Shown here: in pieces, positions 7,868 to 64,000 of the stretch
Layout of the letters: every line of letters begins with the position of its first letter
Numbering within the stretch: the first letter of the stretch is position 1
From: Bdellovibrionales bacterium Ga0074137
GTDB taxonomy: Bacteria; Bdellovibrionota; Bdellovibrionia; Bdellovibrionales; JAMPXM01
Reading direction: 5' to 3'
Assembly (NCBI GenBank): GCA_001464715.1
Contig: LNDT01000029.1
Coordinates: 1,313 to 65,312 of the forward strand
Length of the DNA stretch: 64,000 bases
Position numbers and translations under genes: made by a program
Notes under the pieces: generated by a model
Databases searched by the model: none
What the model saw: only the letters and a program-made list of their open reading frames with translations
What the model was told of the DNA's origin: nothing

Positions 7868-9268
7868 TTAGTTTGATCGCGCCAGATTTTGCTCGGAGGA
7901 TTTTTGAAGCTGTTCAATTTTGGACTTCGGGTAGTAGTGCGAAAGTATCTCGCGGTAGGTTTTTCCGTCGCTGGCGAGTTGGCGAGAGCCCCACTGGCAA
8001 AGCCCAGCACCATGTCCAAAGCCTCGGCCGACGATTTCAACAGTGACCGGGCGTGCGGCTTCACCACTGTCGGACGGCGCAACACCGCTCACAACATCAA
8101 ACAAGGTACTTCGAATTTCGCTATACCCCAAAGCCGCTCGAAGACGTTCCCCCGAGAACCGAACTTCGCGGCCCTCGACCGAACGAGCTTGAAGGAACTC
8201 GGCGCGACCACCACTTGTTCTGGTCACAACACTCAGTGACGCCACTTCGAAACCAGACGGTACCAGCTGTTTTCGCCGAAGCTCCCTAGAAAGATCAGCC
8301 CTCGTCGTTACAAAACGCCATGAATTGCGAGTCGAGACCGCACAGCCACGATCGATGATCGCACCATACTCAGCCACGCCACCGTCAGAACCACGGGCCG
8401 AGCTGCCGTCCCCAGCGCTTGTCCAAACTTCGTGCGGAAGATCGACGCGGCCGCCGCAGTCGGCGTGGTAATGAGCTTTCATCGGCCTTCGGGAACTATC
8501 CGTAAGAACTTCGCCGCGAGTCGCTCTCACCGCCTCAGAAGCTCGCGAGTGCTTGCGGTCAAAATCAAAAACTTGATCGATAACACTGGACTCAAGTAGC
8601 CAGTCGACAGACTTTCCAGACCGCTGAGTCGACGCGGCCGACATCCGCTCTCGGACACGCGCCAAAGTGAAAGATCGTGCAGCCACAGCCTGCGCTTTCA
8701 AAGCCTCCATCGGCCAATCGCGCGGAACTTCGCTGGCGACAACACCTTCAAGATAACTTTCTAAATCCAAAAAACCGACCAGCTGAATCGGAGACCTCGG
8801 ACCTTTCACGACCAATTGCACGTGCGCAGGAGAAGGTCGTAAATCAACTCGAAGTCCACTTCCCCGAATGTCGACTTTGCGACCCAACACGGTCGCGATC
8901 TTTTTCCCGAGATCTGAGCCACCGCTTGAGTCCGATGCTACTTCAAAAATGCTCCACTCTTCTTTTGCTTTCAGCTTTTCAAACTGAATTTTTATTTTCG
9001 AGAACCCCGGTCGTGAGATGCTACCAATCAAAATGTCGCTGCCGGAGACGGAAACGACGCCCTTCAGTGGCCTCAGCCGTACCGACACATAGCCTGGCGC
9101 ACCAGAGATCGCAGCCGGAGCGACCGACGACGTGTCGGCCCGCCCGCTGGGTGCCGATGCCAACGCCACTGCCGCTGAAAGTGAAATTAGAAAAAAGCCC
9201 AGCGCGAAAATCGCCGGGCGAAAGCTTCTACTCACGCGTGTGTCCCAATAGACCGCGAAGCAAATCAA
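7868..9268 (-). CDS. SpoIID/LytB domain protein (lytic transglycosylase-like)
   Basis: 'LESYLEGVVASEVPRDWPMEALKAQAVAARSF', 'GRGFGHGAGLCQWG', 'YREILSHYYP'. The true start may be near 9235. Confidence 0.92.
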   Translation of the reverse strand: MICFAVYWDTRVSRSFRPAIFALGFFLISLSAAVALASAPSGRADTSSVAPAAISGAPGYVSVRLRPLKGVVSVSGSDILIGSISRPGFSKIKIQFEKLKAKEEWSIFEVASDSSGGSDLGKKIATVLGRKVDIRGSGLRVDLRPSPAHVQLVVKGPRSPIQLVGFLDLESYLEGVVASEVPRDWPMEALKAQAVAARSFTLARVRERMSAASTQRSGKSVDWLLESSVIDQVFDFDRKHSRASEAVRATRGEVLTDSSRRPMKAHYHADCGGRVDLPHEVWTSAGDGSSARGSDGGVAEYGAIIDRGCAVSTRNSWRFVTTRADLSRELRRKQLVPSGFEVASLSVVTRTSGGRAEFLQARSVEGREVRFSGERLRAALGYSEIRSTLFDVVSGVAPSDSGEAARPVTVEIVGRGFGHGAGLCQWGSRQLASDGKTYREILSHYYPKSKIEQLQKSSEQNLARSN

Positions 9269-9980
9269 TCGGAACTGGGAAAATGATCGTACGTGTTCCT
9301 TCTTTGCTTGCGATCTCAGTCAGTGTCTGAAGGTAGGCCAGCTGAATCGAATTTGGTGACACTGCCAAACGAGTTGCAGCTTCCGCCAAACGTTCCGAAC
9401 GCTGAAGTTCACCGTCAGCAGAAATCAGCTTCGCACGACGCTCACGCTCGGCCTCAGCCTGACGAGCCATCGCCGACTGCATTTCTTTCGGAAGGTCGAT
9501 GTTTTTAACTTCAACCAAAGATACTTTTACGCCCCATGGCTCAGTCTGCTTATCGATCAGCTCTTGAAGACGATGATTGATTTTATCTCGCTGCTCCAGA
9601 ATTTCATCCATCTGAAACTGACCTAAGACCGAACGAAGGGTCGTTTGTGCGAGCTGGCTTGTCGCAAAATAGTAGTCAGCGACTTTAGAAACCGCGTCTT
9701 CCGAATTCGTCACTCGGAAATAAACGACAGCATTCACTTTCAAAGAAATATTATCTTGAGTGATCACGTCTTGCGACGGCACGTCCATTGTTACTGTGCG
9801 AAGGTCGACGCGATAGATTTTTTCAACAAACGGAATAACTAAAACCAAACCCGGTCCACGGACTCCGATGCTTCGACCAAGTCTAAGAACAACACCCTTT
9901 TCCCATTCGTTCAAAATCTTGACCGATGAGAACAAGATGAAAAGAACAAAAAGAACTAGAAAAATACCAAACATCTCCAC
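9228..9980 (-). CDS. Slipin/stomatin (SPFH/band 7) family protein
   Basis: 'GVVLRLGR..GPGL', 'QDVITQDN', 'QTTLRSVLG', 'AMARQAEAERERRAK'. Confidence 0.95.
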   Translation of the reverse strand: MEMFGIFLVLFVLFILFSSVKILNEWEKGVVLRLGRSIGVRGPGLVLVIPFVEKIYRVDLRTVTMDVPSQDVITQDNISLKVNAVVYFRVTNSEDAVSKVADYYFATSQLAQTTLRSVLGQFQMDEILEQRDKINHRLQELIDKQTEPWGVKVSLVEVKNIDLPKEMQSAMARQAEAERERRAKLISADGELQRSERLAEAATRLAVSPNSIQLAYLQTLTEIASKEGTRTIIFPVPIDLLRGLLGHTRE

Positions 9981-52346: not shown

Positions 52347-52433
52347 GCGCGAGTGGCGAAATTGGTAGACGCACCAGCTTGAGGTGCTGGCGGCCGCAAG
52401 GTCATGGAAGTTCAAGTCTTCTCTCGCGCACCA
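52347..52433 (+). tRNA. tRNA-Leu(GAG)
   Basis: Acceptor stem GCGCGAG/CTCGCGC, D-loop TGGTAGA, anticodon arm CCAGC-TTGAGGT-GCTGG, long variable arm, TTCAAGT T-loop, encoded CCA. Confidence 0.98.
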
Positions 52434-54099
52434 ACTGTCAAAGTATTCGAACTAAAATAACTAGATTTTTTTACTCGGGAGGCCTCAAGACTCCCGATTT
52501 TTTTTGTCCCATGGAGGTCGCTGTTTTCAGGCTGTTCGGCCGTCCGATAGTGGTCGGCATCTACAATAAAATGAATGACGACGGTCGTCGGGCTTACGTC
52601 GATACGGCGGACAAACTTTCGAATCATTTGTTTGGCCTGGTTTACATTTTCCGGTCGCAAAACCACTTCTCGATAGCGACGCGCAAAATCGGCGAAGTTC
52701 TCCATTCCCACGACTCGATCAGCCCCAATCCCACCCTCTGCCTTTAAATCCATGAGTGCCGAATCATGATCTGCTTTCAAGCCCTGAAGACTCTCGAGCT
52801 GTTTATAGATTGGACCTGCCGAAACCTCTTTTGGAAGCTCGGGTTCAGCCCCATAATCTTGCTGTTGAGTCGTTCCATCTCTTTTCGACCGGGATTGGAC
52901 TCATAGTGTTCGCGCACTTTTGCAAAAATCCTTTTGGCGAGACGCTCGTCGACCATGAACTCGTTGATCTTTTCGACCACAAAAGGCTCGAGTTTTTTTG
53001 ATGGCACGCGGTGTGGGTCACAGTGAAATAGCTTCTTCGAGAGTGTCGAATCACGTTTTGTCGCCCAAGCGTGCTCGTAATAACCGAACTTTCCATTGCA
53101 GCCATGAGCCGATTTGCCAACCATAACACTTCCGCATTTTTTGCAGTGAACAAGTCCCGAGAATAGGTACGGCATTTTCCCGTCTTTATGCGGCTTTAGG
53201 CGACGAAAATTAGATTCGAGCATTTGATCGGCACGACGAAAACTGACCTCATCAACAATCGCGGGCCATACTGCTTTCGCCTCTTTCATTTCGCCACGAT
53301 GCGAATAAATCTTTCGTCCAATGTACGCTTGGTTGCGAATCATCTTCTGAAGATTGTCGATCGTGAAAAAACCCATTCGCCGAAAGTTCCCGCCGCCCTC
53401 GGTTTCTCGTTTCAACGTATATCCGTTGCTATTGAGCCATGTCGCCGCTGCGGCTAATGAACCTTCACGCAAAAAAGCAGTGAAAGCAGTACGAACCGTT
53501 GCCGCCATTTCTTCATCAACTTCTAGAAACCCTCGACGGTCGGGAATCGTTCGGTATCCAACGGGCACCGTGCCTCCGTTATAAAGTCCCCGAGCAGCGC
53601 GAGCTGCAACGTTGGCTTCGACACGTTCTGAAGTTTGTTTTCGTTCAAACTGTGCCAGGTTCATCATCTGGAAGAGAACCATTTCGCCCGCTGCCGTCGT
53701 CGTGTCGAAATCTTCCCGCAATGAAGAAAACCGACAACCGTGCGCCCGCATCATGTCCCACATCTCAATGAAGTCTTTGATGTTGCGAGAAAGCCGCGAG
53801 ATTTCCGTCACCATGATGAGATCGATCTCGCCAGTGCGAACTGCACGCAGAAGTTCGATAAGCTTTGGCCGCTTCATGTTTTTAGCCGAAATCCCGGCGT
53901 CGACGTAAACGCCTTTGATTTCTCCAAAGGTGCCCATGCGGTTTTTGTATTCGACAGCCTGCCGCAGGCGATCTTCTTGATTCCGAATGGAACCTTCGGG
54001 ATTCTCGGCCTGTTCTTCTGTGCTGACGCGAATGTAGAGCGCAATCTTGAATGATTGCGTTTTCGACAAGGATTTATAGTGTAACGCTTTTTTAGACAT
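52412..54099 (-). pseudogene. Large serine recombinase (integrase), frameshifted near 52841
   Basis: 'LYIRVSTEEQ', 'YVDAGISA', 'SRLSR', 'AQFERKQTSER', recombinase domain, 'CKKCG' zinc ribbon. The coiled coil continues in a second frame (ELPKEVSAGPIYKQLESLQGLKAD...) to 52412. Confidence 0.88.
52475..52505 (+). terminator. Terminator downstream of tRNA-Leu, antisense within the recombinase tail
   Basis: TCGGGAG-N9-CTCCCGA followed by T8. Confidence 0.7.
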
Positions 54100-54286
54100 C
54101 GGTACCCGTACTTTCTGCCGTATTCGGCGATGAAGTTCCGGGAACCAAAATGTCTTTCTCGTGGAGCTGGCAGAGATGACGATACACCATCTCTGCCCAC
54201 TCATCAAGAATTCGATCAAACTCTTCTGGACTCACCGTCACGAAATCGACTTCAACCGTTTCCGGTTTCCAAGGAGACTGTTTCAT
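54092..54286 (-). CDS. 64-aa protein directly upstream of the recombinase
   Basis: GAGGAG RBS before MKQSPW; overlaps the recombinase start by 8 nt. Confidence 0.6.
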   Translation of the reverse strand: MKQSPWKPETVEVDFVTVSPEEFDRILDEWAEMVYRHLCQLHEKDILVPGTSSPNTAESTGTDV

Positions 54287-54299
54287 TGACCGAACTCCT

Positions 54300-54749
54300 C
54301 TAGTGTTGTTTTTCCGGTTTAGGTTTCCTGCGCGAAACTCTGTGCGTTGGTGATTTGACCGCATCTGTTCCGGACGAACGTTTTGGTTTCAGAAGTGAAA
54401 CACTTTGCAATTCGGATTGAAGCTCTTCGACGCGCGGAAGGTCGTCGCGTGCAAGAGCCGTCTTAATTTCGTGCGCAAGCCATGTGACATGGCGGCCGGG
54501 TTCATAGTGATCACCCCTAATCTGCGTGAGTTCCTTCGGATCGAATGCGTCCTTGCGATTTCTAATCAGGAAGTTCACGACGTCAGATTTCGTGAGCGAT
54601 AAAAACCCGCGAGAGGATTCGTTCACTTGTTTAAGCCACGAATCGAGCCGACCACTCTCTTCCGGTCCGAGCGTCACGCGGTCGATTGATTTTCCTGGCG
54701 AAGACTTGCCGACAGCTACTGCGGCTGAAGATTCGTCTACCGGCTCCAT
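54300..54749 (-). CDS. Hypothetical protein, possibly DNA-binding
   Basis: 149 aa, AAGGAG RBS; 'RVTL..LDSWL..LTKSDVVNFLI' is reminiscent of a ribbon-helix-helix domain. Confidence 0.6.
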   Translation of the reverse strand: MEPVDESSAAVAVGKSSPGKSIDRVTLGPEESGRLDSWLKQVNESSRGFLSLTKSDVVNFLIRNRKDAFDPKELTQIRGDHYEPGRHVTWLAHEIKTALARDDLPRVEELQSELQSVSLLKPKRSSGTDAVKSPTHRVSRRKPKPEKQH

Positions 54750-54961
54750 GTCGTCTCCTTTTCAATGCGATACATGTAATGACCTTCAACCCATTCGCCA
54801 CCGCCGTTGCGTAGTTCCGACGGAATCCAAATCTTCCGGACGACGGGTTTCAAAAGTTTCGGCGGTTCCGCCTTCGACTTTTCAGAATCATTTTTTGTCG
54901 CGAGTGTCGTACAACCAGAAAGCACGCAAAGAAACGCAAGCAGCAGACAATGCTTCATCAT
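54737..54961 (-). CDS. TraV/VirB7-like T4SS lipoprotein
   Basis: Lipobox LSG-C; 'PVVRKIWIP....GEWVEGHYMY' resembles the TraV C-terminus. Confidence 0.7.
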   Translation of the reverse strand: MMKHCLLLAFLCVLSGCTTLATKNDSEKSKAEPPKLLKPVVRKIWIPSELRNGGGEWVEGHYMYRIEKETTWSR

Positions 54962-55122
54962 AAAGACTCCTTTTTAATTTCGAATTTCGATTTTCCGAAC
55001 GGACGCAATGTATTGAGAGACGGGAGAATGGAGCGGAGACGGATACAGCGAGGAATGGAGATTTGTGAGCGAGCGAGACAGAGGGGTAGTCAGTTAGTAA
55101 ATGTACCCGCGCGGCGAAACGT

Positions 55123-56031
55123 CTAAGTACGCTTTTTTCCTAGAACTTTTCGCGTGTCGTAATGCACGGTAACGCTCGATTGTCCCCACGTTTGCCCGAC
55201 ATGTTTCCCGTAAGTGTCCCCACATATTGCCTGCATATTCTCGCGGAACGTGCCGACGTTATCTGAACACTCGTTGGTAACTGGCGCATTCCATCCGGCA
55301 CTGATGTAATCTTCCATGTCGATAAAGAAATGGAAATTTTGGGTGTTTTCGCGCACACAGGTTCTTGCGCGAAGAATCTGAACCTTCACCAGTGGATCGC
55401 CGATCAGCCAATACACTCGATCGATCTGTTTCATCATCTGATAAAACCTGAGTGTCGATTCGTACGTCGCAAGTGCCTTCGGCCAAATTTCTGCTTCAAA
55501 CGCGAGAAGCCAATTTTTACTCTCGGATCGGATTCGCGTGTAGCCGTCTGGCCGATGCAATTTTGAGGCTGGCAACCAATCTGGATAATTTTCCACCGAA
55601 CGCCTGCGCATTTCCTGCTCGGTGAAGTGAGTTACAATCGGAAGTTGGTGCGTTGCCCATTCGCCCAATTGCAAAGCTATCACGTTTCGATCATGCCACA
55701 AATGTTCTGAACCGAAACCTTCCTCGCAGAGTTCTCCAAGCGATGGTCGAATCGCGCTAAAACCTCGATCCGTCAAAATCCACGCCTTGAAATTCTGCTC
55801 AACGGCTTCAGCGGTCGTGATAAACTTATACCGCGCCAATCGCTCGAGCGCTTTATAAGTTGAATAAGGTGTCAGGGGTCGACCAACCGCTTCATGAACT
55901 GTTGCCGTGGAGGCGAGTTTCCACTTCCAAAGAAAATGAAGAATCTTGCTGTCGCGATCGGTGAAGAGTCGTCCGCAGCCCTTTCGCCCAAGGTTTCGCG
56001 TAAGGCTCAATAGGTCTTGATTCACTTGCAT
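55123..56031 (-). CDS. Replication-relaxation family protein (MOBC-like relaxase)
   Basis: N-terminal wHTH 'TDRDSKILHFL', 'HLWHD', 'RPDG...AFEAE' (D..ExE nuclease motif). Confidence 0.78.
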   Translation of the reverse strand: MQVNQDLLSLTRNLGRKGCGRLFTDRDSKILHFLWKWKLASTATVHEAVGRPLTPYSTYKALERLARYKFITTAEAVEQNFKAWILTDRGFSAIRPSLGELCEEGFGSEHLWHDRNVIALQLGEWATHQLPIVTHFTEQEMRRRSVENYPDWLPASKLHRPDGYTRIRSESKNWLLAFEAEIWPKALATYESTLRFYQMMKQIDRVYWLIGDPLVKVQILRARTCVRENTQNFHFFIDMEDYISAGWNAPVTNECSDNVGTFRENMQAICGDTYGKHVGQTWGQSSVTVHYDTRKVLGKKRT

Positions 56032-56051
56032 TTAGTTTTCTCCCGTTTCGG

Positions 56052-57339
56052 CTAGGCGAAGAGATACGTTTGAACTTCTTCGAGCTTCGGCCCGAACTTC
56101 CAAACGGCTCGACCCTTGATGTAAGGATTGATCTCAAACGCGCGCTTCGTACCGAGCGCCGACACACTTGAAACTTGGTTTGGCATCGGGAAGCAAAGCA
56201 CGCCTGGCAAATTCGATTTAACCGTCTGATCAAAACTTGAAGCGTCTGGTTTCTGAGTCGCAACAATAAGGTGAACGCCAGCCGCTCGTCCCTGGCGTGC
56301 GATGCGATTGACGGCGGCCCGTGCGTCGTTTTGCAACTCTTTGTCGACTTCTCCGTCTCGCGCATAGAGCTGGGCGATCTCGTCAACAATGATGAACGTT
56401 CGACGGATTTCTTCAAGGCGTCCTTCGGTCAAATCCCCTTTGTACCCGACTTGTTTCTTTCGATACTCGTCGAGGTTTGAAACGCCGACCGTCGATAGCG
56501 CCTTGAACCGTGGCTCAAGGCTTGCGCCGATTGATACGAGAAATTCGATGCTGCGCTTTGCGCCATCAATACACGACACGTTGTTACCGAGATTTTTCGC
56601 GTGGTTTCGAATATCGGCCGACTCCATGCCGCCTTTGAAGTCGAGGAAAAACACGTCCGACTCTGGGTTATTCAACGTCAAAACCGTCGTCGCAACCTTT
56701 AGAAAGTTCGACTTTCCGCCGCCGGTTTGTCCTGCGACAAGAATGTGACCGACATCTCGCATGTTGATGTGGATCGTACCTTCGTGCGAATGACCAATCG
56801 GAATTTATTTCGATTTTGCTTTTGTCATTTTCGTCTTGATGAAGTTTAACGACAGTCACGTTTAAGACTGATTCAATTCGCTTAATCTCTTTTTCGAAAT
56901 CCGCTTTCGGAATGCCATGACAGAGGAGCCGAAGCTTGCGAACGTAATCGTCAACTCGAAGATCTTCGATCAACGATGGAAGTCGTCCGTTACATTTTAG
57001 ATTCGCTGCGCTGAACGCATCCTTGAGGCGATTCAAAAGCCGGTTTCGTGCTCCTGCTCGCGCAACACCCCACAAGACCCAACCAGAAATGAGGCTTGCA
57101 TAGGTAAGGAAGAGGCGAAGCGAACCACCAAGCCGAAACTTTAAACCCAAACTTCCCAATATCCACGAGTCCAACCGAAAGTAGAAAACCAAGGCCAATA
57201 ACAGCCCCGCATAACAAGTCTTGGCCGGAACACGATTGTTGAGAATGCCTGAAGCAATCTCTTCAGCCGCCGCCCATAAGAATCGTCCAACTGACACCGC
57301 GATGTCCGCGAAGTCTCGATTTTTCCTTTGATACTCCAT
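56052..57339 (-). pseudogene. FtsK/SpoIIIE (TcpA-like) membrane ATPase split by a frameshift near 56805
   Basis: N-terminal TM part in 56668-57339; ATPase part with GQTGGGKS, 'IIVDE', 'RQGRAAGVHLIVATQKP'. The ATPase frame opens at IPIGHS just after an in-frame TAA at 56805-56807. Confidence 0.82.
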
Positions 57340-57342
57340 ATA

Positions 57343-58254
57343 CTATTTTTCCTCTCGTTTTGGTTCGTCGATAATTAAGTAAAACTCAGTTCCTCGTTTT
57401 ACTTCGATGATGTTTGGTGAAGACTTCATCTCTTCCATCAGACTCTGGCTTTGCTCGAGCGCGGCTTTCGACGCACCCGAAAACGCCGCATCTCGCATCG
57501 ACTTTTTCTCGGGCGCGCCCCACAAGTTCGAACCACTCGAATTTGTTTGAAGTCCGTCTGCCATTCCGCCTAAGACTCCGAAACCGATTGCCATGCCCAT
57601 CTTTTTCGATCGTGCTCCGACGAACGCGCCTTTAAGCCCTAAAATTTTGTCCTCAACATCAAAGGCCTGACCAAGAATTCGAAATGATTCACCACTTGGA
57701 AAAATGGCTCGATCAAACTGAACAAAGAGCCGCTCTTCCGTCGACTTTCCTCGGCCAAAAAGCGTTGTCCGTTCGGGAAAAAGTATTTCGCCATCCACCT
57801 TAAGAGCAGATAGAAGGCGCGCTTTGACGACTCCATTGGAGGCGCCACTTTCGAGAATCGCTCTTGCCTCTGAACCAACTGGTATGTCAGATGCACGACT
57901 CAAATTGACGACTCGAATCCCACCAGCGATGCCGGTCGACGACCTGGCCCGTGTGATTCGATTCAAAGGTTCTCGCCCATTCAAAAATGGTGCATCGACA
58001 ATCGGTAGATCCTGTATGATCCCCGGCACACTCATCTCTTGGCCGCGTAGGTCGCTAAAATCTTTTTTGCCCGAAAATAGAAACGTGAAGATGCCAATCA
58101 CGATTGCAATCGGCAGCGCCACTGCTTTTAAGGCGGCCGTACTCACTGTTTCTTTAAGTCCATTCCATGTTCGAAAATAGGCTGCATGACCCCAGCGAAA
58201 AGCTCGACCTTCCCTTTGGATAAATACTTCCGCCTGCGGTTGATTTTCATTCAT
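57343..58254 (-). CDS. VirB10/TraB-like T4SS core protein
   Basis: TM helix, 'IPVGSEARAIL', 'RLFVQFD', 'DKILGLKG', 'IIEVKRGTEF'. Confidence 0.78.
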   Translation of the reverse strand: MNENQPQAEVFIQREGRAFRWGHAAYFRTWNGLKETVSTAALKAVALPIAIVIGIFTFLFSGKKDFSDLRGQEMSVPGIIQDLPIVDAPFLNGREPLNRITRARSSTGIAGGIRVVNLSRASDIPVGSEARAILESGASNGVVKARLLSALKVDGEILFPERTTLFGRGKSTEERLFVQFDRAIFPSGESFRILGQAFDVEDKILGLKGAFVGARSKKMGMAIGFGVLGGMADGLQTNSSGSNLWGAPEKKSMRDAAFSGASKAALEQSQSLMEEMKSSPNIIEVKRGTEFYLIIDEPKREEK

Positions 58255-58624
58255 GGAACTTCACCTCGTATTGGGAGTCTTTCGGATCTCTCACGATCAA
58301 TATGTCGTCGCCGAGGCTTTGCACCGTGATCAGATCGAACGCGCATCTGCGATTTTCCAGATAAACAACCACGTTGGTTCGGCCTGTCGAATGAAGTGCG
58401 CTTATCAGCAAATCGTTCCTGATCTGTTTGAAATCAAAAATCGCCGCACCCGGTACGACTTCTTTCGGCTTAAATGGAAAGTTCAGAGTCGTGATTCGGC
58501 CGCGCGCGATTCGCACAGCACGCGTTTGCTTGTCGTCACATTGGATTGTTTTTTCTTTCTCGCCTCGTCCAAGACTGGTTCCGACCCAAAAGATGCAAAA
58601 GAAAACCAGTAGCGCGTACCTCAT
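58247..58624 (-). CDS. VirB9/TraK-like secreted T4SS protein
   Basis: Signal peptide, 'VRIARGRITTLNFP', 'TNVVV'; position in the cluster. Confidence 0.6.
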   Translation of the reverse strand: MRYALLVFFCIFWVGTSLGRGEKEKTIQCDDKQTRAVRIARGRITTLNFPFKPKEVVPGAAIFDFKQIRNDLLISALHSTGRTNVVVYLENRRCAFDLITVQSLGDDILIVRDPKDSQYEVKFHE

Positions 58625-59163
58625 CGACGAACCTCCTTGGAATCAATTGCAACGGCGTCGTTCAGCCTTAAGCCGTATGGATTGAGTTCAGTCGGATCGA
58701 TTTCTTCGAATGTCACTTTGACCACCGTCTTCAATGCCGAACGGATTTCGCCAATGGCCAGGACGCGATCAAAATCGATTGTCGCCGCATCCTTATTTAC
58801 GACCGCTTTGCGAAAGACCGTGGCTTGCGTGAGGCCGCGCGTTTTCATTTCTCGCTGTTCGGTTTCACGAATCTCGGTTTGCCGTTTTGAAATGAAAACG
58901 TCCGGCGCTAGAGCTGCGGAGTCGAAACGAGCCTTTAGCATCAGCTTTAGCGCCAGTTCGATATCGTGTTCAGTTCGATTCAGTGGTGTCATGCGAACAA
59001 TTTCTAGGCCGCGACTTGATCGCTCGACGATCGCCGGTTCTTTGTCGTGCAGAAAAAGAACGGCGAGCGACAAGAGCATGTCGGCTAAGATCAAGACTTT
59101 GACCACCGTTCGAAGAAACCCATTTTCTTTTGATAGCGAATCTACTGTCGATGAAAATTTCAT
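58621..59163 (-). CDS. VirB8/TraE-like bitopic protein
   Basis: Single TM helix; C-terminal 'NPYGL' motif. Confidence 0.72.
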   Translation of the reverse strand: MKFSSTVDSLSKENGFLRTVVKVLILADMLLSLAVLFLHDKEPAIVERSSRGLEIVRMTPLNRTEHDIELALKLMLKARFDSAALAPDVFISKRQTEIRETEQREMKTRGLTQATVFRKAVVNKDAATIDFDRVLAIGEIRSALKTVVKVTFEEIDPTELNPYGLRLNDAVAIDSKEVRR

Positions 59164-59197
59164 TTGCAGTACCTCCTTGAATCTATATTGTTAGAAT

Positions 59198-60037
59198 TTA
59201 CTTTTCGTCCGAGGCGAGACCTTTGACGAATCCTTTGGCCGAGCGTATGGGAGTCGCTGCGAGTCCGGTGATTCCTGGCGGGGTCATGGCAACTGCTCCC
59301 AAAATCACACCGCCGAGGGCCGCCGCCCCAGAATGCAGGCCGCCGCGCAGAAGTTTGCCAACAACGAGAGGGGTCACAACGACTGAAAATGCGAGCAGAA
59401 CATTCAGCAAAATAGCCGTTAGAAAATCGACGTCATACTCAGGTCGATTGATCTCGGACAGCGCGAAGCTCCAAAGAAGTGCTGCCAAAACACTCCACGT
59501 CACCTTCCAACACGACACTTCAATGAGCGATTGAAATAGACCCTTCGTTGCGTGCGCTGTCGACGGCAACACAAAGGCCGCGATCAACAGCGGCGAAAAA
59601 ATATAGAGCAGAGTCCACGTGAAAAGAAAAAGCGTGTCGGCCATATAGACGCTTATGTAGAGCAGAAAAAAGGTCAGATTGCTGATAAGCAGCAATACCG
59701 AGTCTTTCACCGAGACCCAAGACCACGTCAGTGTTTCGATCTTGTCACCAAGGCGACCAAGCACGAGTTTGAAATTCGTGAGTTGGCCGACTTCGCGAGC
59801 GACCGCATCGGTGATGTCGGCGATCGTGTTCATGATCTCGGGTAAAGCTACCAGCAAAAATGCCGCAATAGTCGCGCGCCCAACAAGGCTCAAAAATTCT
59901 GGTACCTGACCTAACGGCATTCGGAAATAGTTGATAACAACGCCGAGAAGTAAAAGGCTCAGAATGATGCTATAGAAGAGACTCGCAAAAATCGCGTGAA
60001 TCTGTTTCGCCTCGCTCGCTAGCCATGTCATATCCAT
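59198..60037 (-). CDS. VirB6/TrbL-like polytopic membrane protein
   Basis: Multiple TM helices, 'SPLLIAAFVLPST', Gly/Ala tail; position in the cluster. Confidence 0.72.
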   Translation of the reverse strand: MDMTWLASEAKQIHAIFASLFYSIILSLLLLGVVINYFRMPLGQVPEFLSLVGRATIAAFLLVALPEIMNTIADITDAVAREVGQLTNFKLVLGRLGDKIETLTWSWVSVKDSVLLLISNLTFFLLYISVYMADTLFLFTWTLLYIFSPLLIAAFVLPSTAHATKGLFQSLIEVSCWKVTWSVLAALLWSFALSEINRPEYDVDFLTAILLNVLLAFSVVVTPLVVGKLLRGGLHSGAAALGGVILGAVAMTPPGITGLAATPIRSAKGFVKGLASDEK

Positions 60038-60038
60038 A

Positions 60039-60731
60039 TCAAAACCTCGGGGTATCAAACCCTGCTGCAATCGTTTTCATTTTCGCCTTCAGTCTCTTTC
60101 CTTCGGCGAGGTATTGCGATGTCTTGTCTTTTTCTTGCTTGTTCTGAACGGCCATCGCCTGGGCTTGAAGTTTCAAACCTTGCCCGGTCGCTCGGATCTG
60201 TTGGTTTAAAACGTGGATCATCACCCCAAGCGATTGCGCGGTAAGTTTTGCGGCACCTCCTGGCGATACCGAGTGCGAATAGGTTTTGATCTCTTCGCCA
60301 ATTCGATCAAGTTTCTGCGTGTAGTCGTTCAATTCGTTGTTGAAGGTGAGCGCCTCCGCGACAGTCTGGTCGGTATTTCGCTGGACCTTCGCGACTTGCG
60401 AATCGACCGCGCGACCAAAAACGGTTTCCACGGTGTTCAACGCTTGATCGACGCCACGAAGCTCTCGGTACAAGCCCGGATCGATGCGGACACCAAGAGT
60501 CTCGGCCATCGCAAGCGAATCGTTGATACCGCGATTTACTTCTCGCAGAAGTCCTAGCGTGTCGCTGCTCTGACCTAGGATTTGTTGAAGCTGCGCAAGT
60601 TGCTGAACCGCGTTTGCGAGGATCTGCGCCAAGACGGCGACATCTGCTCCCCAAATATCAGCGTGTGCAGTTCTCGGCGCAGGCAATAGAAGGCCCAGCA
60701 CTGTGAACACAGTGCAAACTAGTTTTTTCAC
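60039..60731 (-). CDS. VirB5/TrbJ-like secreted helical protein
   Basis: Signal peptide (AHA-D), Gln-rich helices; lies between VirB4 and VirB6. Confidence 0.62.
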   Translation of the reverse strand: MKKLVCTVFTVLGLLLPAPRTAHADIWGADVAVLAQILANAVQQLAQLQQILGQSSDTLGLLREVNRGINDSLAMAETLGVRIDPGLYRELRGVDQALNTVETVFGRAVDSQVAKVQRNTDQTVAEALTFNNELNDYTQKLDRIGEEIKTYSHSVSPGGAAKLTAQSLGVMIHVLNQQIRATGQGLKLQAQAMAVQNKQEKDKTSQYLAEGKRLKAKMKTIAAGFDTPRF

Positions 60732-60746
60732 TCTCTATCCTTTCAG

Positions 60747-63173
60747 TTAAAATCTATTCGACGCCGTCTCTGAAGCCGATGCGCCATGTGGGAATTCTTT
60801 GGCAAGTATCTCTAGCAGCTCCGAATTCGTGGCACTGGGATGCTCTAGTCGTCGTACTTCTAGCTTTTTTAAGTCCTGTGGATCTGTCGTTGCGAGCCAA
60901 TATTCAAGCGGCGTGCTTTCAATCACGACGACCTGCTTTTCGTCGCCTGCGATGAGAAACGCTTCCGAAAAATATCCTTTCTTCGAAATCACACTCTCAA
61001 CCAGATTCGCTTCTCGTTCATTGAGCAGCAGCGTGTCTTTAAGCGACGCGAGATTTCCGCCAGTTTGCTTCAGCACCCACTTAATCGACGAGTTCGGTAA
61101 AATTGCCGAAGCCACCTTTGATTTTGCGAAGTCGTCCATCGTCTGAGAAATTGCGATGGCAGACGCTTTGTATTTTCGAAAAGTCCGAAAAACCTCGGCG
61201 ATAAATCTTGAACCGGCATCATTTTCGAGAAGTCGCCAGCATTCGTCGAACACAACGAACTTCGAACTCACGCGGTCCTTTTGCACTTCTCGCCAGATCA
61301 GATCAGTAATCAAAAACAGGCAAACGGCTTGAAGGTCGGGCTGCGATTCCAGACCCTTCAGATCAAAACAGACGATCCGGCTCTGAAGTTCGAGATTCGT
61401 TTTTCGATCGACAAATTTTCCAAATGGCGAATCACCGCACCATGGCCCGAGAATCTTTCCCATGCGCTGAAGAAGCGGGTCTTGGTTTGTAAGCAAGCGT
61501 TCGCGCAAGTGCGAAAGTCTCGGCTCTGGCTCTTCACGCAAAATATCTTTAATTGCTTGTTCAATCTCGGATCGTTCAAGCTTGCCAATACCGCTTGCCG
61601 CATCTTCTTTCGTCATCATTTCCACGAGCGATGTCACGAACTTAATTTTCTGATCGATAGCTTCTGGCGTCGACTCGTTCAGATCAAATGGGTTCAGGGC
61701 GAGGCTGCTGTTTGCACCAAGCGGAATATATTGACCTTCCAATTGTTCAGCGACTTTTCGGTAGCTCCCGCCGATGTCCAATATGAAAACCCTCGGATTT
61801 TCTTTTGCGAGATGCGAAATCAAAATGTTCGTAAGGAACGACTTTCCGCTTCCAGAACCTCCGCTGACGACTTGATTGAAGTTCGTAAGCCGTGGACTAA
61901 ATGGATCGAATCCAATCACAGCACCCCGGCGATTTCGAAGCAAAATGCGCGGCTCTTCATGTCCGGACCAGTCACCATAAATCGGCAAAAAGTCGGCGAG
62001 GACACTAGTGTTCATTCGTCGCGAGCGTTCTTTGGCACGGCCATTTGGCATCGCTAGTTCTAGAAACATGGGTGATGCCGCAAGCGACTCGGTCATTCCT
62101 TCCGCGCCCGAAAGCTCGCGGAAGGTCTGAAGAACTTTTGCGACTTGTTCCTCTAGGATCGATTCGCTTTCGGATCGCAGAACGACGTTCATTGAAACGC
62201 CAAAAATTTTTTCTTGGCCAGCGACGCGTCCACTTAGCAACGCTTCAATATCTTTGAGCTTCGCTTCGCTCTCGAGATCCGAAACACCTTTTTTGCCCGC
62301 GTACATCGCATAGGCGATTCGACGCTGGGTCTCGAGTGCCATTGTTTCTCGATCCTGGTTCAAAACTTCGATCGACAAAAATAGTCTCGAATCAAACGGC
62401 ATCGAATGAAGCTTTTCGCTCATCGACGCATATGTGTGATCGGGCATGATCTTAAGCGATAAGACTCGGTGATGAACGTGGCCCAACGCAAAACCCTTAA
62501 GCGACATCACCATGTCACTTAAAACAAGATCGTCGCGAATGTCCTCGCGATTGAAATTCAATCCGTTCAATGGAAATTTTGGATTCCATTGGTCGAAAAG
62601 AAGTTGAAAGGCATCTTCCTCCGAGAGTTCAACGGAACCCACGCCCAAAGTCTCGAGGCCCTGACGAACGTCCGATGCAGTCCTAGCGAAAGCTCGAAGT
62701 TCGGTTTCCAGTTTCTCGGGTGGAAGCTCCTGCTCTACCTCTCTTTTCCAGAGTGGAAAGCGGCTCTTCTGCGCCACGGGCTTACGGTCGAACGGCTTTC
62801 GCAATACGAGATAAAGACGGTGCTGTGGGACTAATCCTGTCTCACCCAGCTTCGTCAGTCTCGCTAGTCGCTCGTCCATCAGCTTCGTAACCAATGGGTG
62901 TGCATCCGCGACCGCCATATCGCGATGTCGATCCCGAAGCTTTGAATCAGATAAGTGAATTCCTTGGACAAACTGAATTGATAGGCCGCTCGGAAGTCCA
63001 TTCAGAAAATCACACGCGACATGATGAACCGAATTCAATTCCTCATCGGTGGCACACGAGACGTCGCGCGGCTTCAATTGCAAAACAGTACCGAGTGAAA
63101 AGTCCTTAAAAACGAGAACACCTTCCTCGAATCCCCAGACTTCAAGTTTTTCCGCAAGTGACGACGTCATCAA
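60747..63173 (-). CDS. virB4: VirB4/TraC family T4SS ATPase
   Basis: 808 aa; GGSGSGKS, 'LDIGGSY', 'LNPF', 'VVFDECW', 'RTFRKY', 'ISQ'. Confidence 0.93.
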   Translation of the reverse strand: MMTSSLAEKLEVWGFEEGVLVFKDFSLGTVLQLKPRDVSCATDEELNSVHHVACDFLNGLPSGLSIQFVQGIHLSDSKLRDRHRDMAVADAHPLVTKLMDERLARLTKLGETGLVPQHRLYLVLRKPFDRKPVAQKSRFPLWKREVEQELPPEKLETELRAFARTASDVRQGLETLGVGSVELSEEDAFQLLFDQWNPKFPLNGLNFNREDIRDDLVLSDMVMSLKGFALGHVHHRVLSLKIMPDHTYASMSEKLHSMPFDSRLFLSIEVLNQDRETMALETQRRIAYAMYAGKKGVSDLESEAKLKDIEALLSGRVAGQEKIFGVSMNVVLRSESESILEEQVAKVLQTFRELSGAEGMTESLAASPMFLELAMPNGRAKERSRRMNTSVLADFLPIYGDWSGHEEPRILLRNRRGAVIGFDPFSPRLTNFNQVVSGGSGSGKSFLTNILISHLAKENPRVFILDIGGSYRKVAEQLEGQYIPLGANSSLALNPFDLNESTPEAIDQKIKFVTSLVEMMTKEDAASGIGKLERSEIEQAIKDILREEPEPRLSHLRERLLTNQDPLLQRMGKILGPWCGDSPFGKFVDRKTNLELQSRIVCFDLKGLESQPDLQAVCLFLITDLIWREVQKDRVSSKFVVFDECWRLLENDAGSRFIAEVFRTFRKYKASAIAISQTMDDFAKSKVASAILPNSSIKWVLKQTGGNLASLKDTLLLNEREANLVESVISKKGYFSEAFLIAGDEKQVVVIESTPLEYWLATTDPQDLKKLEVRRLEHPSATNSELLEILAKEFPHGASASETASNRF

Positions 63174-63490
63174 TATTTTCTTCCGATCTTTTTTCTAAAT
63201 TGTTTGCGCGCAGTTGCGAGCGGAAATCCGCTCAAGACACCCGGCGCAATCTGAAATCTCGCCAGATGCAAAAAATAGTTATCAGGCTTTCCGGTCTTTC
63301 CAATGCGAAGGCCAATCCCGAGCAGTATGCTTGGCAGCCACGTCCAACAAAATTTGTATGGAAGCCCGCCAAACAGTAGATTTAGGATTGCGAGCATCGA
63401 GAAGACCAAAAATAGATCAACGATTTCAAAACCGAAGACCAAAGTTTTCTTCTCGAGGCACCGATAGACTTCTGAAGTTTTTAGCGACAT
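63170..63490 (-). CDS. VirB3/TraL-like membrane protein
   Basis: 106 aa, two TM helices, 'GKPDNYF.H'; ATGA overlap with virB4. Confidence 0.72.
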   Translation of the reverse strand: MSLKTSEVYRCLEKKTLVFGFEIVDLFLVFSMLAILNLLFGGLPYKFCWTWLPSILLGIGLRIGKTGKPDNYFLHLARFQIAPGVLSGFPLATARKQFRKKIGRKY

Positions 63491-63503
63491 CGAATTCTCC
63501 CCG

Positions 63504-63863
63504 CTAGTGAATCAAGCCGCGAACGAGCGCGATGATACTTTCAGCCCCGAATCCGACGATCGCACCGATCACGGCATAGAAGAGATGTTGCCTCGCATTC
63601 GCGTGTCCCATCGTGAAGCTAAAGCCCGCGATCACAAGACCACAGATTGCAGCAAGCGGAAGCAGCGTTCCGACGAGCTTCGATTGCACCGCCTGCAACG
63701 AACTTTCGACGCTACCAAACGCGAGGAAAGGAAAGGCCGTGATCGCGAGGCACGCCGGGAGCACGAGCTTTGGAAAATTCAGTTTCACGAATGACCGGTG
63801 TTGCTCTTGCGGGAGTTCGTTTTTTTTCAAGTTGCACGAATTGTTCATAGGTAAGATCCTCAT
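63504..63863 (-). CDS. VirB2/TrbC-like pilin
   Basis: Signal ending AFG followed by two hydrophobic helices; directly upstream of the VirB3-like gene. Confidence 0.8.
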   Translation of the reverse strand: MRILPMNNSCNLKKNELPQEQHRSFVKLNFPKLVLPACLAITAFPFLAFGSVESSLQAVQSKLVGTLLPLAAICGLVIAGFSFTMGHANARQHLFYAVIGAIVGFGAESIIALVRGLIH

Positions 63864-63920
63864 TTTTCGTTATTGATTTCAGTCGTGAAAATATTTTGCG
63901 TCTGATCAAATTGCGCGGAT

Positions 63921-64000
63921 TCACTCGTATTCCGCGCTTTCTTCTTCATCGTCGTCGAAACAATCGACGTCCTCTTCACCGAGTTCCTCGTCGTCGCAGA
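63921..64000 (-). CDS. Acidic C-terminal end of a gene truncated by the window edge
   Basis: ...CDDEELGEEDVDCFDDDEEESAEYE-stop. Confidence 0.5.
   Translation of the reverse strand, partial: CDDEELGEEDVDCFDDDEEESAEYE

Follow-up and report, generated by a model that had tools for sequence, protein, structure and literature searches.

The coupling ATPases of the MPF_FA systems, such as TcpA of pCW3 and the couplers of Tn916 and ICEBs1-like elements, are FtsK/SpoIIIE motors, about 450-540 aa long, that carry an N-terminal extension and lack the FtsK gamma domain, and their genes adjoin a relaxase gene and a transfer cluster that contains virB4. To our knowledge, these systems are without a VirB2 pilin, VirB9 and VirB10; their relaxases are of the MOB_T (Rep_trans) or MOB_M (TcpM) type. 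Relaxases of the MOB_C type (PF13814), whose prototypes are TraX of pAD1 and MobC of CloDF13, consist of a winged helix and a restriction-endonuclease-like domain with a conserved motif of acidic residues and a lysine. Reviews up to 2025 describe TcpA as restricted to the MPF_FA systems of Firmicutes, and in the parts of a survey of streptococcal IMEs that we draw on, MobC-type relaxases are reported together with VirD4, and TcpA is never paired with a MobC/PF13814 relaxase (PMC5357655).

Here we describe a region from Bdellovibrionales bacterium Ga0074137 that is likely to represent the half of an ICE devoted to transfer and integration, with a Gram-negative-type mating-pair module joined to a TcpA/Replic_Relax DNA-processing module. 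The Bdellovibrionota are predators in contact with prey, and the mobile element of such a bacterium would unite a Gram-negative style channel with kinds of motor and relaxase so far tied to Gram-positive elements, a combination of channel and motor that is common across the phylum. A preliminary description had proposed a diderm-type T4SS in which an FtsK/TcpA translocase and a MOB_C-like relaxase take the places of VirD4 and an HUH relaxase, and this proposal survived all tests run.

Gene content and the mating-pair module

The region covers positions 52347-64000 of the window, by which we mean the whole 64,000-nt stretch analysed from contig LNDT01000029.1. All genes of the transfer cluster are co-oriented on the minus strand (Table 1), and both the ORF calls and the profile scans agree with the single cluster described earlier, in which virB2- to virB10-like genes are joined by genes for an FtsK ATPase, a relaxase-like protein, a lipoprotein and a recombinase. 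The FtsK-type gene and the recombinase gene are each split into two ORFs, which had previously been missed. From the window to the contig end there are 1551 nt, and the left end of the element falls past the contig end.

Table 1. Features of the region, with the evidence for each assignment
Feature	Position	Strand	Basis
tRNA-Leu(GAG)	52347..52433	+	ARAGORN
Large serine recombinase, two ORFs (52777-54219 and 52412-52780)	52412..54219	-	Resolvase, Recombinase, Zn_ribbon_recom
90-aa small ORF, between p149 and recombinase	54092..54364	-	ORF list
p149, conserved 149-aa protein	54300..54749	-	present in related loci
74-aa lipoprotein, lipobox LSGC	54737..54961	-	sequence itself
Putative relaxase, 302 aa	55123..56031	-	remote Replic_Relax (MOB_C-type) homologue
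TcpA-family FtsK/SpoIIIE ATPase, putative coupling protein, two ORFs (56668-57339 and 56052-56762)	56052..57339	-	PF01580
VirB10/TrbI-like, 303 aa	57343..58254	-	PF03743
VirB9 N-terminal domain only, 125 aa	58247..58624	-	NCBIfam VirB9, hhalign
VirB8-like, 180 aa (weak)	58621..59163	-	BLAST to C26 paralogue
VirB6-like polytopic membrane protein, 290 aa	59198..60070	-	position and paralogy
VirB5-like secreted protein, 230 aa (weak)	60039..60731	-	NCBIfam VirB5, C26 paralogue
VirB4/TraC-type ATPase, 808 aa	60747..63173	-	PF19044
VirB3-like small membrane protein, 106 aa	63170..63490	-	position and paralogy
VirB2/TrbC-type pilin, 119 aa	63504..63863	-	PF04956
p118, 3' end of conserved acidic 118-aa gene	63921..64000	-	ORFs of locus L001

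We scanned 17 ORFs of the window against Pfam and NCBIfam. The pilin (E 2.8e-9; 37.5 bits, cut-off 27.9), VirB4 (E 1.8e-38) and VirB10/TrbI (E 3e-17; 63.5 bits, cut-off 35) matched the Pfam families given in Table 1. The remaining proteins were compared with a paralogous T4SS on contig C26 of the same genome, where paralogues of B2-B10 are followed by a VirD4-type protein (PF12696, PF02534, PF10412). Identity to the C26 paralogue was 34% for VirB4, 43% for the VirB5-like protein (NCBIfam VirB5 E 5.7e-4, far under the cut-off), 30% for the VirB6-like protein (weak pLS20_p028 match, E 2.6e-4) and 41% for the VirB3-like protein, whose counterpart is itself a weak DUF3487 match. The VirB8-like protein matched (BLAST E 5e-6) a C26 protein assigned to Pfam TraE (5.4e-11) and VirB8 (1.2e-6), and its profile gave no match in the PDB. 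The VirB9 domain (NCBIfam VirB9 E 0.001), with a signal-peptide-like N terminus, aligned in hhalign with a CagX-positive protein of C26 (97.0%, E 1e-10) and with an Omnitrophota VirB9 (96.7%). The 74-aa protein, previously called a TraV-like lipoprotein, does carry a lipobox, but the TraV-like label is without profile support and a Pfam search returned no family match. Homologues lie directly 3' of VirB10 in two Omnitrophota loci, and the protein may be an outer-membrane partner of the core complex in a VirB7/TraV-like role. Beyond the window, next to p118, is a gene for a protein with two sigma-70 region-4 domains (Sigma70_r4 E 4.2e-19); by synteny, it and p118 stand ahead of the pilin gene in relatives.

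Among NCBIfam models, VirB4 scored best with the TraC-F-type (285 bits, about half the family cut-off of 567), ahead of VirB4_CagE (193) and CD1110 (172), each under its own cut-off. Its best enterobacterial plasmid matches were likewise TraC proteins of the MPF_F type (F, IncC, IncHI) at about 25% identity, but no TraU, TraW, TraN, TraH or TraF family match was obtained among the scanned ORFs, and the three MPF_F references formed a VirB4 clade of their own (SH-aLRT 92) with the Bdellovibrionota sequences outside. VirB4 was not placed inside the sampled MPF_F, MPF_T, FA or FATA references in a tree whose deep nodes were unresolved; since MPF_G, I, C and B were outside the sampling, the suggestion of an unclassified class is tentative.

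The putative coupling ATPase and relaxase

One of the two ORFs of the ATPase gene (56052-56762) matched FtsK_SpoIIIE with an E value of 4.1e-19 (69.3 bits against a cut-off of 24), and its relatives are single ORFs of 453-509 aa. A profile built from 18 intact relatives gave 22 matches in the PDB, with no TrwB/VirD4 chain among them. The match to TcpA of pCW3 (6o1w, 6o1x, 6o1z), in which profile positions 118-461 aligned with chain positions 15-343, had an E value of 8.4e-55 and a score of 189 bits, as compared with only E 1e-28 and 103 bits for FtsK (2iuu). In the reciprocal BLAST search, clostridial TcpA matched 12 of 12 Bdellovibrionota ATPases tested with 97-134 bits, as against 62 bits for the genome's own FtsK and no significant similarity to five VirD4 proteins (best E 0.004). 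The nearest Atlas clusters were FtsK_SpoIIIE proteins of 420-460 aa, commonest in Bacillota. On sequence criteria, the ATPase is thus a member of the TcpA family, which bears out the earlier identification as an FtsK/TcpA-type translocase, and it resembles the MPF_FA couplers in size, architecture and gene neighbourhood. It differs in that identity to those couplers is only about 25-28%, the host is diderm, a VirB2 pilin, a VirB9 domain and VirB10 are present in the accompanying T4SS, and the relaxase candidate is Replic_Relax-like. Of 7 N-terminal regions put through a crude hydropathy scan, only 4 contained a segment of membrane type, so anchoring in the membrane is uncertain.

The 302-aa protein has an N-terminal winged helix and a C-terminal PD-(D/E)xK-like nuclease domain, and the residues H113 D114, E138 Q139, D162 G163 and E179 E181 K185 were invariant in the alignment; D162, E179, E181 and K185 correspond to the acidic and lysine motif of the MOB_C relaxases. 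Structural models (AF2, pLDDT 83.5 and 83.9) yielded a wHTH match with a Z score of 13.2 for the winged helix and matches with Z scores of 5-7 (best 7.0) for the nuclease domain, where the tool calls a level of about 8 safe. The preliminary description as a MOBC-like relaxase was upheld by remote Replic_Relax homology, as hhalign gave 93.6% to a Replic_Relax protein that passes the cut-off and adjoins a TcpA-like gene, but not by a PF13814 match of the window's protein itself, for which Pfam contained no match at E<=10 except a weak wHTH. Four of 16 homologues did match PF13814 (best E 1.5e-4), all below significance for membership. We regard the protein as a remote Replic_Relax (MOB_C-type) homologue and putative relaxase, which differs from described MOB_C relaxases by falling short of PF13814, by pairing with TcpA and by a C-terminal tail (about 50 residues) for which model confidence is low.

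In the working that we propose, the TcpA-family ATPase, whose gene immediately follows virB10 at the VirD4 position, would serve as coupling protein and DNA motor, and the winged-helix protein with the restriction-endonuclease fold would cut at oriT. The putative relaxase gene is followed by small accessory genes and then the integrase, which in this genome is a large serine recombinase predicted to act on the tRNA-Leu 3' end. We infer functional replacement of VirD4 by TcpA, a relaxase role for the nuclease-like 302-aa protein and transfer of the element.

Related loci and the VirD4-bearing sister cluster

We collected 35 related loci with VirB4 identities of 42-86%, 19 of which extend to virB10. 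The gene order, which the preliminary description had proposed to seek in Bdellovibrionota, recurs in 18 of these, with a TcpA-like gene next after virB10; in one (L030), a 698-aa insert lies between the two, and the 19th locus stops 151 nt past virB10. Of the 16 loci that continue past the TcpA gene, 15 have the relaxase candidate next, the exception (L006) being cut by an IS30-like transposase. One relative (G001) contains a complete element of 21,938 nt flanked on both sides by a 48-nt direct repeat that corresponds to the 3' end of tRNA-Leu, with the T4SS and TcpA block inside this single pair of att repeats.

No match to VirD4, VirB11 or HUH-relaxase families was found among the ORFs of the complete element, among 95 flanking ORFs in 7 loci or, with VirB1 also included, among the 17 ORFs of the window, as had been stated for this part. 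The VirD4 that would speak against our reading was therefore absent from the delimited relative; one is present in the genome of the window, but in the separate T4SS on C26, where it occupies the TcpA position. In the VirB4 tree, C26 groups as sister (SH-aLRT 85) with a cluster of G224 that has TcpA-like and Replic_Relax genes instead, which speaks for a replacement by position. Other T4SSs of this kind, from Omnitrophota and "Deltaproteobacteria" MAGs (L037-L041) and Thermus plasmids, share with C26 and the window the order B2-B3-B4-B5-B6-B8-B9-B10 followed by a coupling ATPase, and VirB4 in these sister systems is 25-34% identical to that of the window. They have a coupler of the VirD4/TraG-D_C type and a full-length VirB9 of 215-273 aa, whereas the TcpA-type clade has TcpA and the 125-aa VirB9 domain. 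PF02534 matches were seen on other contigs in four of five relatives' genomes, and VirD4-type proteins encoded elsewhere in most of these genomes could act in trans.

A composite origin would account for some of these observations. The VirB-like cluster would then be one machine, which might depend on a VirD4 from another locus or have no role in DNA transport, and the TcpA-relaxase-(xis)-integrase block an IME-like module that hijacks an available pore. The order coupling protein-relaxase-excisionase-integrase is indeed that of the compact streptococcal IME module in the portion of the survey considered here (PMC5357655), VirD4-type genes occur elsewhere in four of the five relatives' genomes and in G000, and the coupling protein type differs between sister VirB4 lineages, so the TcpA block is exchangeable. 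We nevertheless consider a composite unlikely. Over VirB4 identities of 42-86%, the T4SS and the TcpA block stand side by side in one orientation in 18 of 19 loci, and in G001 a single att-repeat pair encloses both; the fifth relative's genome has two such elements and no PF02534 match, and in most loci the start of the TcpA gene coincides with or precedes the stop of virB10, as expected in one operon.

Integration, split genes and distribution

The recombinase matched Resolvase (E 2.7e-33), Recombinase (E 3.3e-14) and Zn_ribbon_recom (E 1.9e-9), and its translation likely begins at residue 41 (ATG) of the long ORF. The ORF end overlaps the 3' end of tRNA-Leu(GAG) by 22 nt, and this tRNA gene is the probable integration target; a second element of the same genome has equal geometry at tRNA-Leu(TAA), and contig C5 carries an intact 579-aa paralogue (49% identity). 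The serine integrase described earlier holds for the window but not for most relatives, in which the integrase is of the tyrosine type and accompanied by an HTH_17 protein; tRNA genes adjoin the integrase in 4 relatives. As to the small genes, p149 follows the lipoprotein gene in 14 related loci (alignment A7), with no Pfam match and only two designed proteins in the PDB (E 0.0022 and 0.4), and is possibly a relaxosome accessory or DNA-binding protein. The 90-aa ORF, which had no Pfam or NCBIfam match, may encode a directionality factor or be no gene at all.

Were the splits in the ATPase and recombinase genes real, the window's copy would be dead. It would then be a decaying, non-functional remnant with two true pseudogenes, whatever the family does elsewhere, in keeping with degenerate copies in relatives such as L006 and a contig with a broken integrase (C41). 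Compared with public contigs (Logan, low depth of 3-6x), the window lacks 68 nt between 56806 and 56807 and 31 nt between 52842 and 52843, so the splits are probably assembly gaps. At the first junction, a contig of run X3 reads across with an additional 68 letters, and contigs of X1 and X6 depart from the window; at the second, runs X1, X2 and X6 have extra letters (net +31) and contigs of X2 and X6 bridge it. None of the contigs compared bridges either junction in the window's form, those of X1, which is probably the source sample, diverge from it precisely there, and codon arithmetic from the coordinates shows that each insertion puts its gene back into one reading frame. We therefore think it improbable that this copy is a remnant.

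That the T4SS is non-conjugative, with the FtsK-like ATPase serving protein secretion or DNA release or uptake in predation, would suit a phylum of prey-contacting predators and the repeated exaptation of T4SSs noted in the part of the literature used here (PMC3548315), but is very improbable in view of the invariable association with integrases, att sites at tRNA genes and a protein of a relaxase family, the patchy, multi-copy distribution (1-3 copies per genome) and the ICE-typical cargo of relatives (restriction-modification, toxin-antitoxin and mer genes, ParA). At a threshold of E<=1e-40, TcpA-like genes were found in none of 401 sampled genomes of another phylum (that of G406) and in 97 of 401 sampled genomes, belonging to 78 of 204 genera, of the Bdellovibrionota, in which the element family is widespread.

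Gene content and distribution of the elements

The window carries a member of a widespread family of Bdellovibrionota integrative conjugative elements (ICEs) that combine a diderm-type mating channel with a TcpA-type motor and a candidate Replic_Relax-like nuclease, and in this respect the hybrid ICE of the preliminary description was essentially right. What we say about function is drawn from the anatomy and conservation of the elements. The host genome (G000) is 3.39 Mb in size, spread over 41 contigs and 98% complete, and the window, located at 1313-65312 of contig C29, ends only 1551 nt before the contig does. The element genes are co-oriented, all on the minus strand, and the domains that pass Pfam cut-offs show that the described cluster of type IV secretion system (T4SS), FtsK ATPase and serine recombinase genes is real. 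In the mating-pair formation set this applies to VirB2, VirB4 and VirB10, while the calls of VirB3, B5, B6, B8 and B9 were based on weak model matches and on paralogy to a second T4SS cluster of the same genome. The Resolvase, Recombinase and zinc-ribbon domains of the large serine recombinase each exceeded their cut-offs. As had been reported, families of VirD4, VirB11, VirB1 and HUH relaxases had no match in any of the 17 window ORFs scanned.

Features of the element region in the window, with strand and evidence
Feature	Coordinates	Strand	Remarks
p118, conserved acidic gene	up to 64000 (the window holds the gene end only)	-
VirB2 pilin	63504-63863	-	over Pfam cut-off
VirB3-like membrane protein	63170-63490	-	weaker evidence
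VirB4	60747-63173	-	over Pfam cut-off
VirB5-like	60039-60731	-	weaker evidence
VirB6-like	59198-60070	-	weaker evidence
VirB8-like	58621-59163	-	weaker evidence
VirB9 N-terminal domain, 125 aa	58247-58624	-	weaker evidence
VirB10	57343-58254	-	over Pfam cut-off
FtsK-type ATPase, two ORFs	56668-57339 and 56052-56762	-	FtsK_SpoIIIE over Pfam cut-off
302-aa protein (relaxase candidate)	55123-56031	-
Lipoprotein, 74 aa	54737-54961	-
149-aa protein (p149)	54300-54749	-
90-aa ORF, doubtful	between p149 and recombinase	-
Large serine recombinase, two ORFs	52777-54219 and 52412-52780	-	three domains over Pfam cut-offs
tRNA-Leu(GAG)	52347-52433	+	22-nt overlap with recombinase ORF

Past the window end, the remainder of p118 is followed by a gene whose product contains two sigma-70 region-4 domains. 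The element was not set apart by its GC content (0.485-0.517 versus 0.49-0.565 elsewhere). A search for oriT-like inverted repeats yielded only a 9-nt palindrome in the 186-nt spacer at 54950-55135 and none in 63850-64000, and family profiles of p149, the VirB8-like protein and the VirB9 domain gave nothing meaningful against PDB sequences. A GC-rich hairpin with a T run is located at 52476-52507 on the plus strand, 43 nt past the tRNA-Leu gene and within the opposite-strand reading frame of the recombinase C-terminal part.

A VirB4 search using one genome per species yielded 40 loci. VirB4 identity was 42-86% in 35 of these, all but two labelled Bdellovibrionota, Bdellovibrionales, Oligoflexales or similar, and 25-28% in the other 5, which belong to MAGs of Omnitrophota and 'Deltaproteobacteria'. 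Gene order was kept, running from the sigma70_r4 protein through p118, B2, B3, B4, B5, B6, B8, B9 domain, B10, TcpA-like ATPase, relaxase candidate and lipoprotein to p149. The TcpA-like gene was next after virB10 in 18 of the 19 loci that reach virB10. In L030, counted among the 18, a 698-aa insert separates the two genes, and L031 stops 151 nt past virB10. The relaxase candidate followed the TcpA-like gene in 15/16 loci extending beyond it, the exception (L006) being cut by an IS30-like transposase.

The proposed serine integrase applies to the window, where all three domains are present, but not to the fully flanked relatives, where a tyrosine integrase came next in all loci (7/7), preceded by an HTH_17 protein in 4 and followed by housekeeping genes. 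The integrase adjoins a tRNA gene in four loci (L005, L010, L019 and L021), as the serine recombinase of the window adjoins tRNA-Leu. The G001 element measures 21,938 nt between direct repeats of 48 nt that correspond to the 3' end of tRNA-Leu; the element on G004:C5 is about 34.5 kb, with repeats of 47-53 nt and two more repeat copies upstream. The four tRNA-Met 3'-end copies at the latter site (L056:816-868, 4468-4514 and 6240-6286; L021:20697-20751) show that integrated elements, or what remains of them, are arrayed in tandem at a single tRNA gene. The left end of the window element falls beyond the contig end, and att repeats are known from the relatives G001 and G004; serine recombinases leave no long repeat. 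A search for the left part on other G000 contigs, using the upstream genes of the relatives, recovered only paralogous two-component genes. On contig C41 of G000 (1752 nt), a tyrosine integrase resembling the one in L002 was matched as two parts that are not in the same frame, so that the gene is broken or the contig is a fragment left by the assembly.

The preliminary description had pointed to a canonical VirD4 and relaxase further along the element as evidence against its reading; no ORF of the complete 21.9-kb G001 element matched the VirD4, VirB11 or HUH-relaxase families. The cargo of larger relatives included ParA, DUF2779, a 1290-aa RecD-like helicase, restriction-modification genes, RelE and mer genes. 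The 1290-aa protein (L056:6840-10712, in the 34.5-kb relative) combines a helicase half resembling RecD/TraA (AAA_30, UvrD_C_2) with 670 N-terminal residues that had no family match, and could be a second DNA-processing enzyme. Upstream of the T4SS, genes for a sigma-54 activator, a histidine kinase and periplasmic binding proteins occur in two arrangements (L002, L011 and L014, 1-7200; L017, L019 and L021, 2100-7400). Since the downstream flanks differ, the sensors may be part of the elements themselves and control their transfer.

To estimate the distribution in the phylum, we used a profile of the TcpA-like protein (E<=1e-40), which matched 97 of 401 sampled genomes in 78 of 204 genera and 86 of 337 high-quality genomes, often in 2-3 copies. 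At the same threshold there were no matches in the 26 genomes of one genus of the phylum, nor in 401 genomes of the phylum of G406. Carriers of the element include several complete genomes of the phylum. A second, intact TcpA-type element of G000, and the third T4SS locus in this genome, is located at the end of contig C5 (L059:9509-19640). Its own 579-aa serine recombinase ORF shares 22 nt with tRNA-Leu(TAA), just as the window recombinase does with tRNA-Leu(GAG). Serine integrases directed at tRNA 3' ends seem unusual. PF02534 matches were present on other contigs in 4/5 relatives' genomes, and there were none in the G004 genome, which has two elements.

The TcpA-type ATPase and the relaxase candidate

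To classify the ATPase, we searched PDB with a profile of 18 intact relatives (alignment A1). The best match was TcpA of pCW3 (E = 8.4e-55, 189 bits), covering nearly the whole solved chain (6o1w/6o1x/6o1z, 'DNA translocase coupling protein'), followed by FtsK (E = 1e-28), EssC/EccC and HerA, and no TrwB, VirD4 or DotL chain was among the 22 matches, in agreement with the suggested TcpA-type translocase. In reciprocal BLAST searches, TcpA of a C. perfringens plasmid matched all 12 Bdellovibrionota proteins examined at 97-134 bits, compared with 62 bits for the 815-aa FtsK of G000 itself and no significant match to five VirD4-type proteins (best E = 0.004). By these comparisons, the ATPase is closer in sequence to TcpA than to FtsK or VirD4. 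PF01580 scored 69.3 bits for the window ATPase and 75-102 bits for those of relatives, and the Walker A motif GQTGGGKS was accompanied by invariant D344 and E345 (A1). TraB was compared through the NCBIfam plasmid_TraB model rather than Streptomyces TraB itself, and this gave 37 bits only. Among 72,556 plasmids, 5 records covered at least 80% of the query, and among the matches listed (4 of 5) the hosts were Clostridium and Bacillus; the nearest ESM-Atlas clusters, by features and structure, were FtsK_SpoIIIE proteins of 420-460 aa that are commonest in Bacillota. A crude Kyte-Doolittle scan of the N-terminus for a possible membrane anchor (19-residue window, threshold 1.6) found one membrane-type segment in 4 of 7 proteins and none in 3.

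The MOBC-like relaxase stood as a remote homology, and the window protein itself fell below PF13814 (Replic_Relax), the family called MobC by CONJscan (PMC5357655). In Pfam at E<=10 the 302-aa protein had no match to PF13814 and only a weak winged-helix match; 4 of 16 homologues matched PF13814 weakly (best E = 1.5e-4). H113 D114, E138 Q139, D162 G163 and E179 E181 K185 were invariant in the 16 homologues. In L062, a more distant locus in G224, the protein after the TcpA-like gene passes PF13814 (34.3 bits, cut-off 25.3), and the 302-aa family profile aligned to it over 200 columns (hhalign probability 93.6%, E = 2.2e-7), placing the HD, RPDGY and EVEL..K columns in register with HE, RPDA and EYEASLK.

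An AlphaFold model of the full protein (pLDDT 83.5) has an N-terminal winged helix similar to a MepR-like protein (Z 13.2, rmsd 5.2, 87 residues) and a MarR protein (Z 12.9, rmsd 1.4, 75 residues). Because winged-helix matches dominated the full-length Foldseek and VIA searches, the C-terminal domain was modelled alone (pLDDT 83.9). Its top VIA matches were nearly all PD-(D/E)xK nucleases at moderate Z of 5.0-7.0 (VC1899, Cdn1, LlaBIII, SdaI, Can2, BsaWI, N.BspD6I and FokI), the best at Z 7.0 and rmsd 3.6 over 125 residues, and the best Foldseek match was FokI (E = 5e-3). The motif residues, the weak PF13814 matches, the alignment to the L062 protein and the structure matches together point to a remote Replic_Relax (MOB_C-type) relaxase candidate rather than a proven member. 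Complex prediction of TcpA-like residues 112-453 with this candidate gave no answer (runs of 0.34, 0.00 and 0.00).

VirD4-type relatives and described mating-pair formation classes

Contig C26 of G000 carries the paralogues of B2-B10, and the place taken by TcpA in the window is occupied there by a VirD4-type protein of 534 aa (PF12696, PF02534, PF10412). In this cluster (L044:1-12477, VirD4-type gene at 8055-9659) a DUF3703 gene interrupts the order between B5 and B6, and CrcB is encoded downstream, on a 12.5-kb contig of lower GC (0.494). VirD4-type proteins were likewise used in the loci of Omnitrophota and 'Deltaproteobacteria' and in a Thermus plasmid. In one Omnitrophota locus (L038:8910-13127), an FtsK_SpoIIIE protein of 299 aa is encoded after the VirD4-type gene, which places both kinds of ATPase side by side, and an ArdC-like anti-restriction protein is also encoded after it.

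We inferred a VirB4 tree from 30 rows, without references for MPF_G, I, C and B and with a partial protein as the TcpF row. The TcpA-type Bdellovibrionota rows formed one clade (SH-aLRT 100), C26 with its VirD4 was sister to L062 with TcpA and Replic_Relax (SH-aLRT 85), and the three MPF_F references formed a clade of their own (SH-aLRT 92), with the FATA and FA references lying apart; the deeper nodes lacked resolution and several rows were on long branches. The best model for the window VirB4 was of the TraC-F type, at 285 bits or half of the cut-off of 567. Unlike MPF_F, the window ORFs had no match to the TraU, TraW, TraN, TraH and TraF families, and its VirB4 is outside the MPF_F clade. 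The MPF_T models VirB4_CagE (193 bits, cut-off 643) and TrbE (102 bits, cut-off 1020) stayed below their cut-offs, and the MPF_T marker VirB11/T2SSE had no match in the window or the complete relative. Likewise, CD1110 of MPF_FA/FATA reached 172 bits of the 325 needed, and in contrast to these classes the window has a pilin and outer-membrane-core parts (VirB9 domain and VirB10). Placement outside the described classes held for the sampled MPF_F, MPF_T, FA and FATA references; for MPF_G, I, C and B the model scores were low (PFL_4706 60 bits, Bac_Flav_CT_G 80 bits).

According to Guglielmini et al. (PMC3548315), TcpA homologues are confined to Firmicutes, in MPF_FA systems without VirD4 and nearly always with MOB_T. 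A 2025 review (PMC12857230) assigns all Gram-negative T4SS coupling proteins to the VirD4 family, limits TcpA to a subset of MPF_FA and mentions a suggestion that it may move double-stranded DNA, and in streptococcal integrative mobilizable elements TcpA was reportedly never paired with a MobC/PF13814 relaxase (PMC5357655). Full-text searches outside subscription literature and supplements turned up no paper describing a TcpA-type coupling protein for Bdellovibrio or any other diderm T4SS. Plasmid matches to 't4cp2', a label that we take to be a VirD4-type profile (CONJScan), were set aside as a TcpA precedent. In PMC6321870 these matches were all on conventional enterobacterial plasmids of the MPF_F, T and I types.

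The pairing of TcpA with a pilin, VirB9 and VirB10, common in a diderm phylum, indicates that the module for coupling and processing is able to pass between monoderms and diderms and is swappable within one MPF lineage. Sister clusters with either VirD4 or TcpA, even in one genome, provide a natural pair for studying which features of the channel a coupling protein has to recognize. The family also brings into a Gram-negative context the question, prompted by the structure of TcpA, of whether such motors move double-stranded DNA. It is conceivable, if rather improbable, that a nuclease of the restriction-endonuclease fold feeds a TcpA/FtsK-like pump without making a covalent tyrosine adduct, in which case the DNA would cross two membranes through the VirB-type channel double-stranded or without a protein pilot, unlike relaxase-piloted single-strand transfer. 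For annotation, these ICEs could be overlooked by tools that, in diderms, call a system only when VirD4 and a classical relaxase are present.

Split reading frames of the ATPase and recombinase

The ATPase of relatives is a single ORF of 453-509 aa, and the window version lacks about 23 codons around the invariant tyrosine Y181 (A1). To examine the splits, we aligned Logan contigs from four public sequencing runs over 52400-57400, at a low depth of 3-6x. At the junction 56806/56807, a contig of run X3, from a study different from that of the probable source, has 68 extra letters between identical flanks, and contigs of X6 and of X1, probably the source sample, track the window as far as precisely this junction and then diverge into other letters; read by eye in frame, 30 of the 65 loose X1 letters correspond to the start of the relatives' segment. 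At 52842/52843, X2 has 31 extra letters, X6 has 39 letters in place of 8, and the X1 loose end equals the last 23 of the extra letters in X2. None of the aligned contigs of the four runs bridged either junction in the window form. With gaps of 68 and 31 nt, single-base frameshift errors were dropped as a cause.

By codon arithmetic, the 68 and 31 nt each restore a single reading frame. The TcpA-like protein would then have about 451 aa, and the recombinase about 610 aa if translated from the first start codon or about 570 aa if translated from the more likely one. Based on the run contigs at both junctions, the restored frames and the intact 579-aa recombinase paralogue on contig C5, the splits most likely represent MAG assembly gaps or a minority variant rather than decay.
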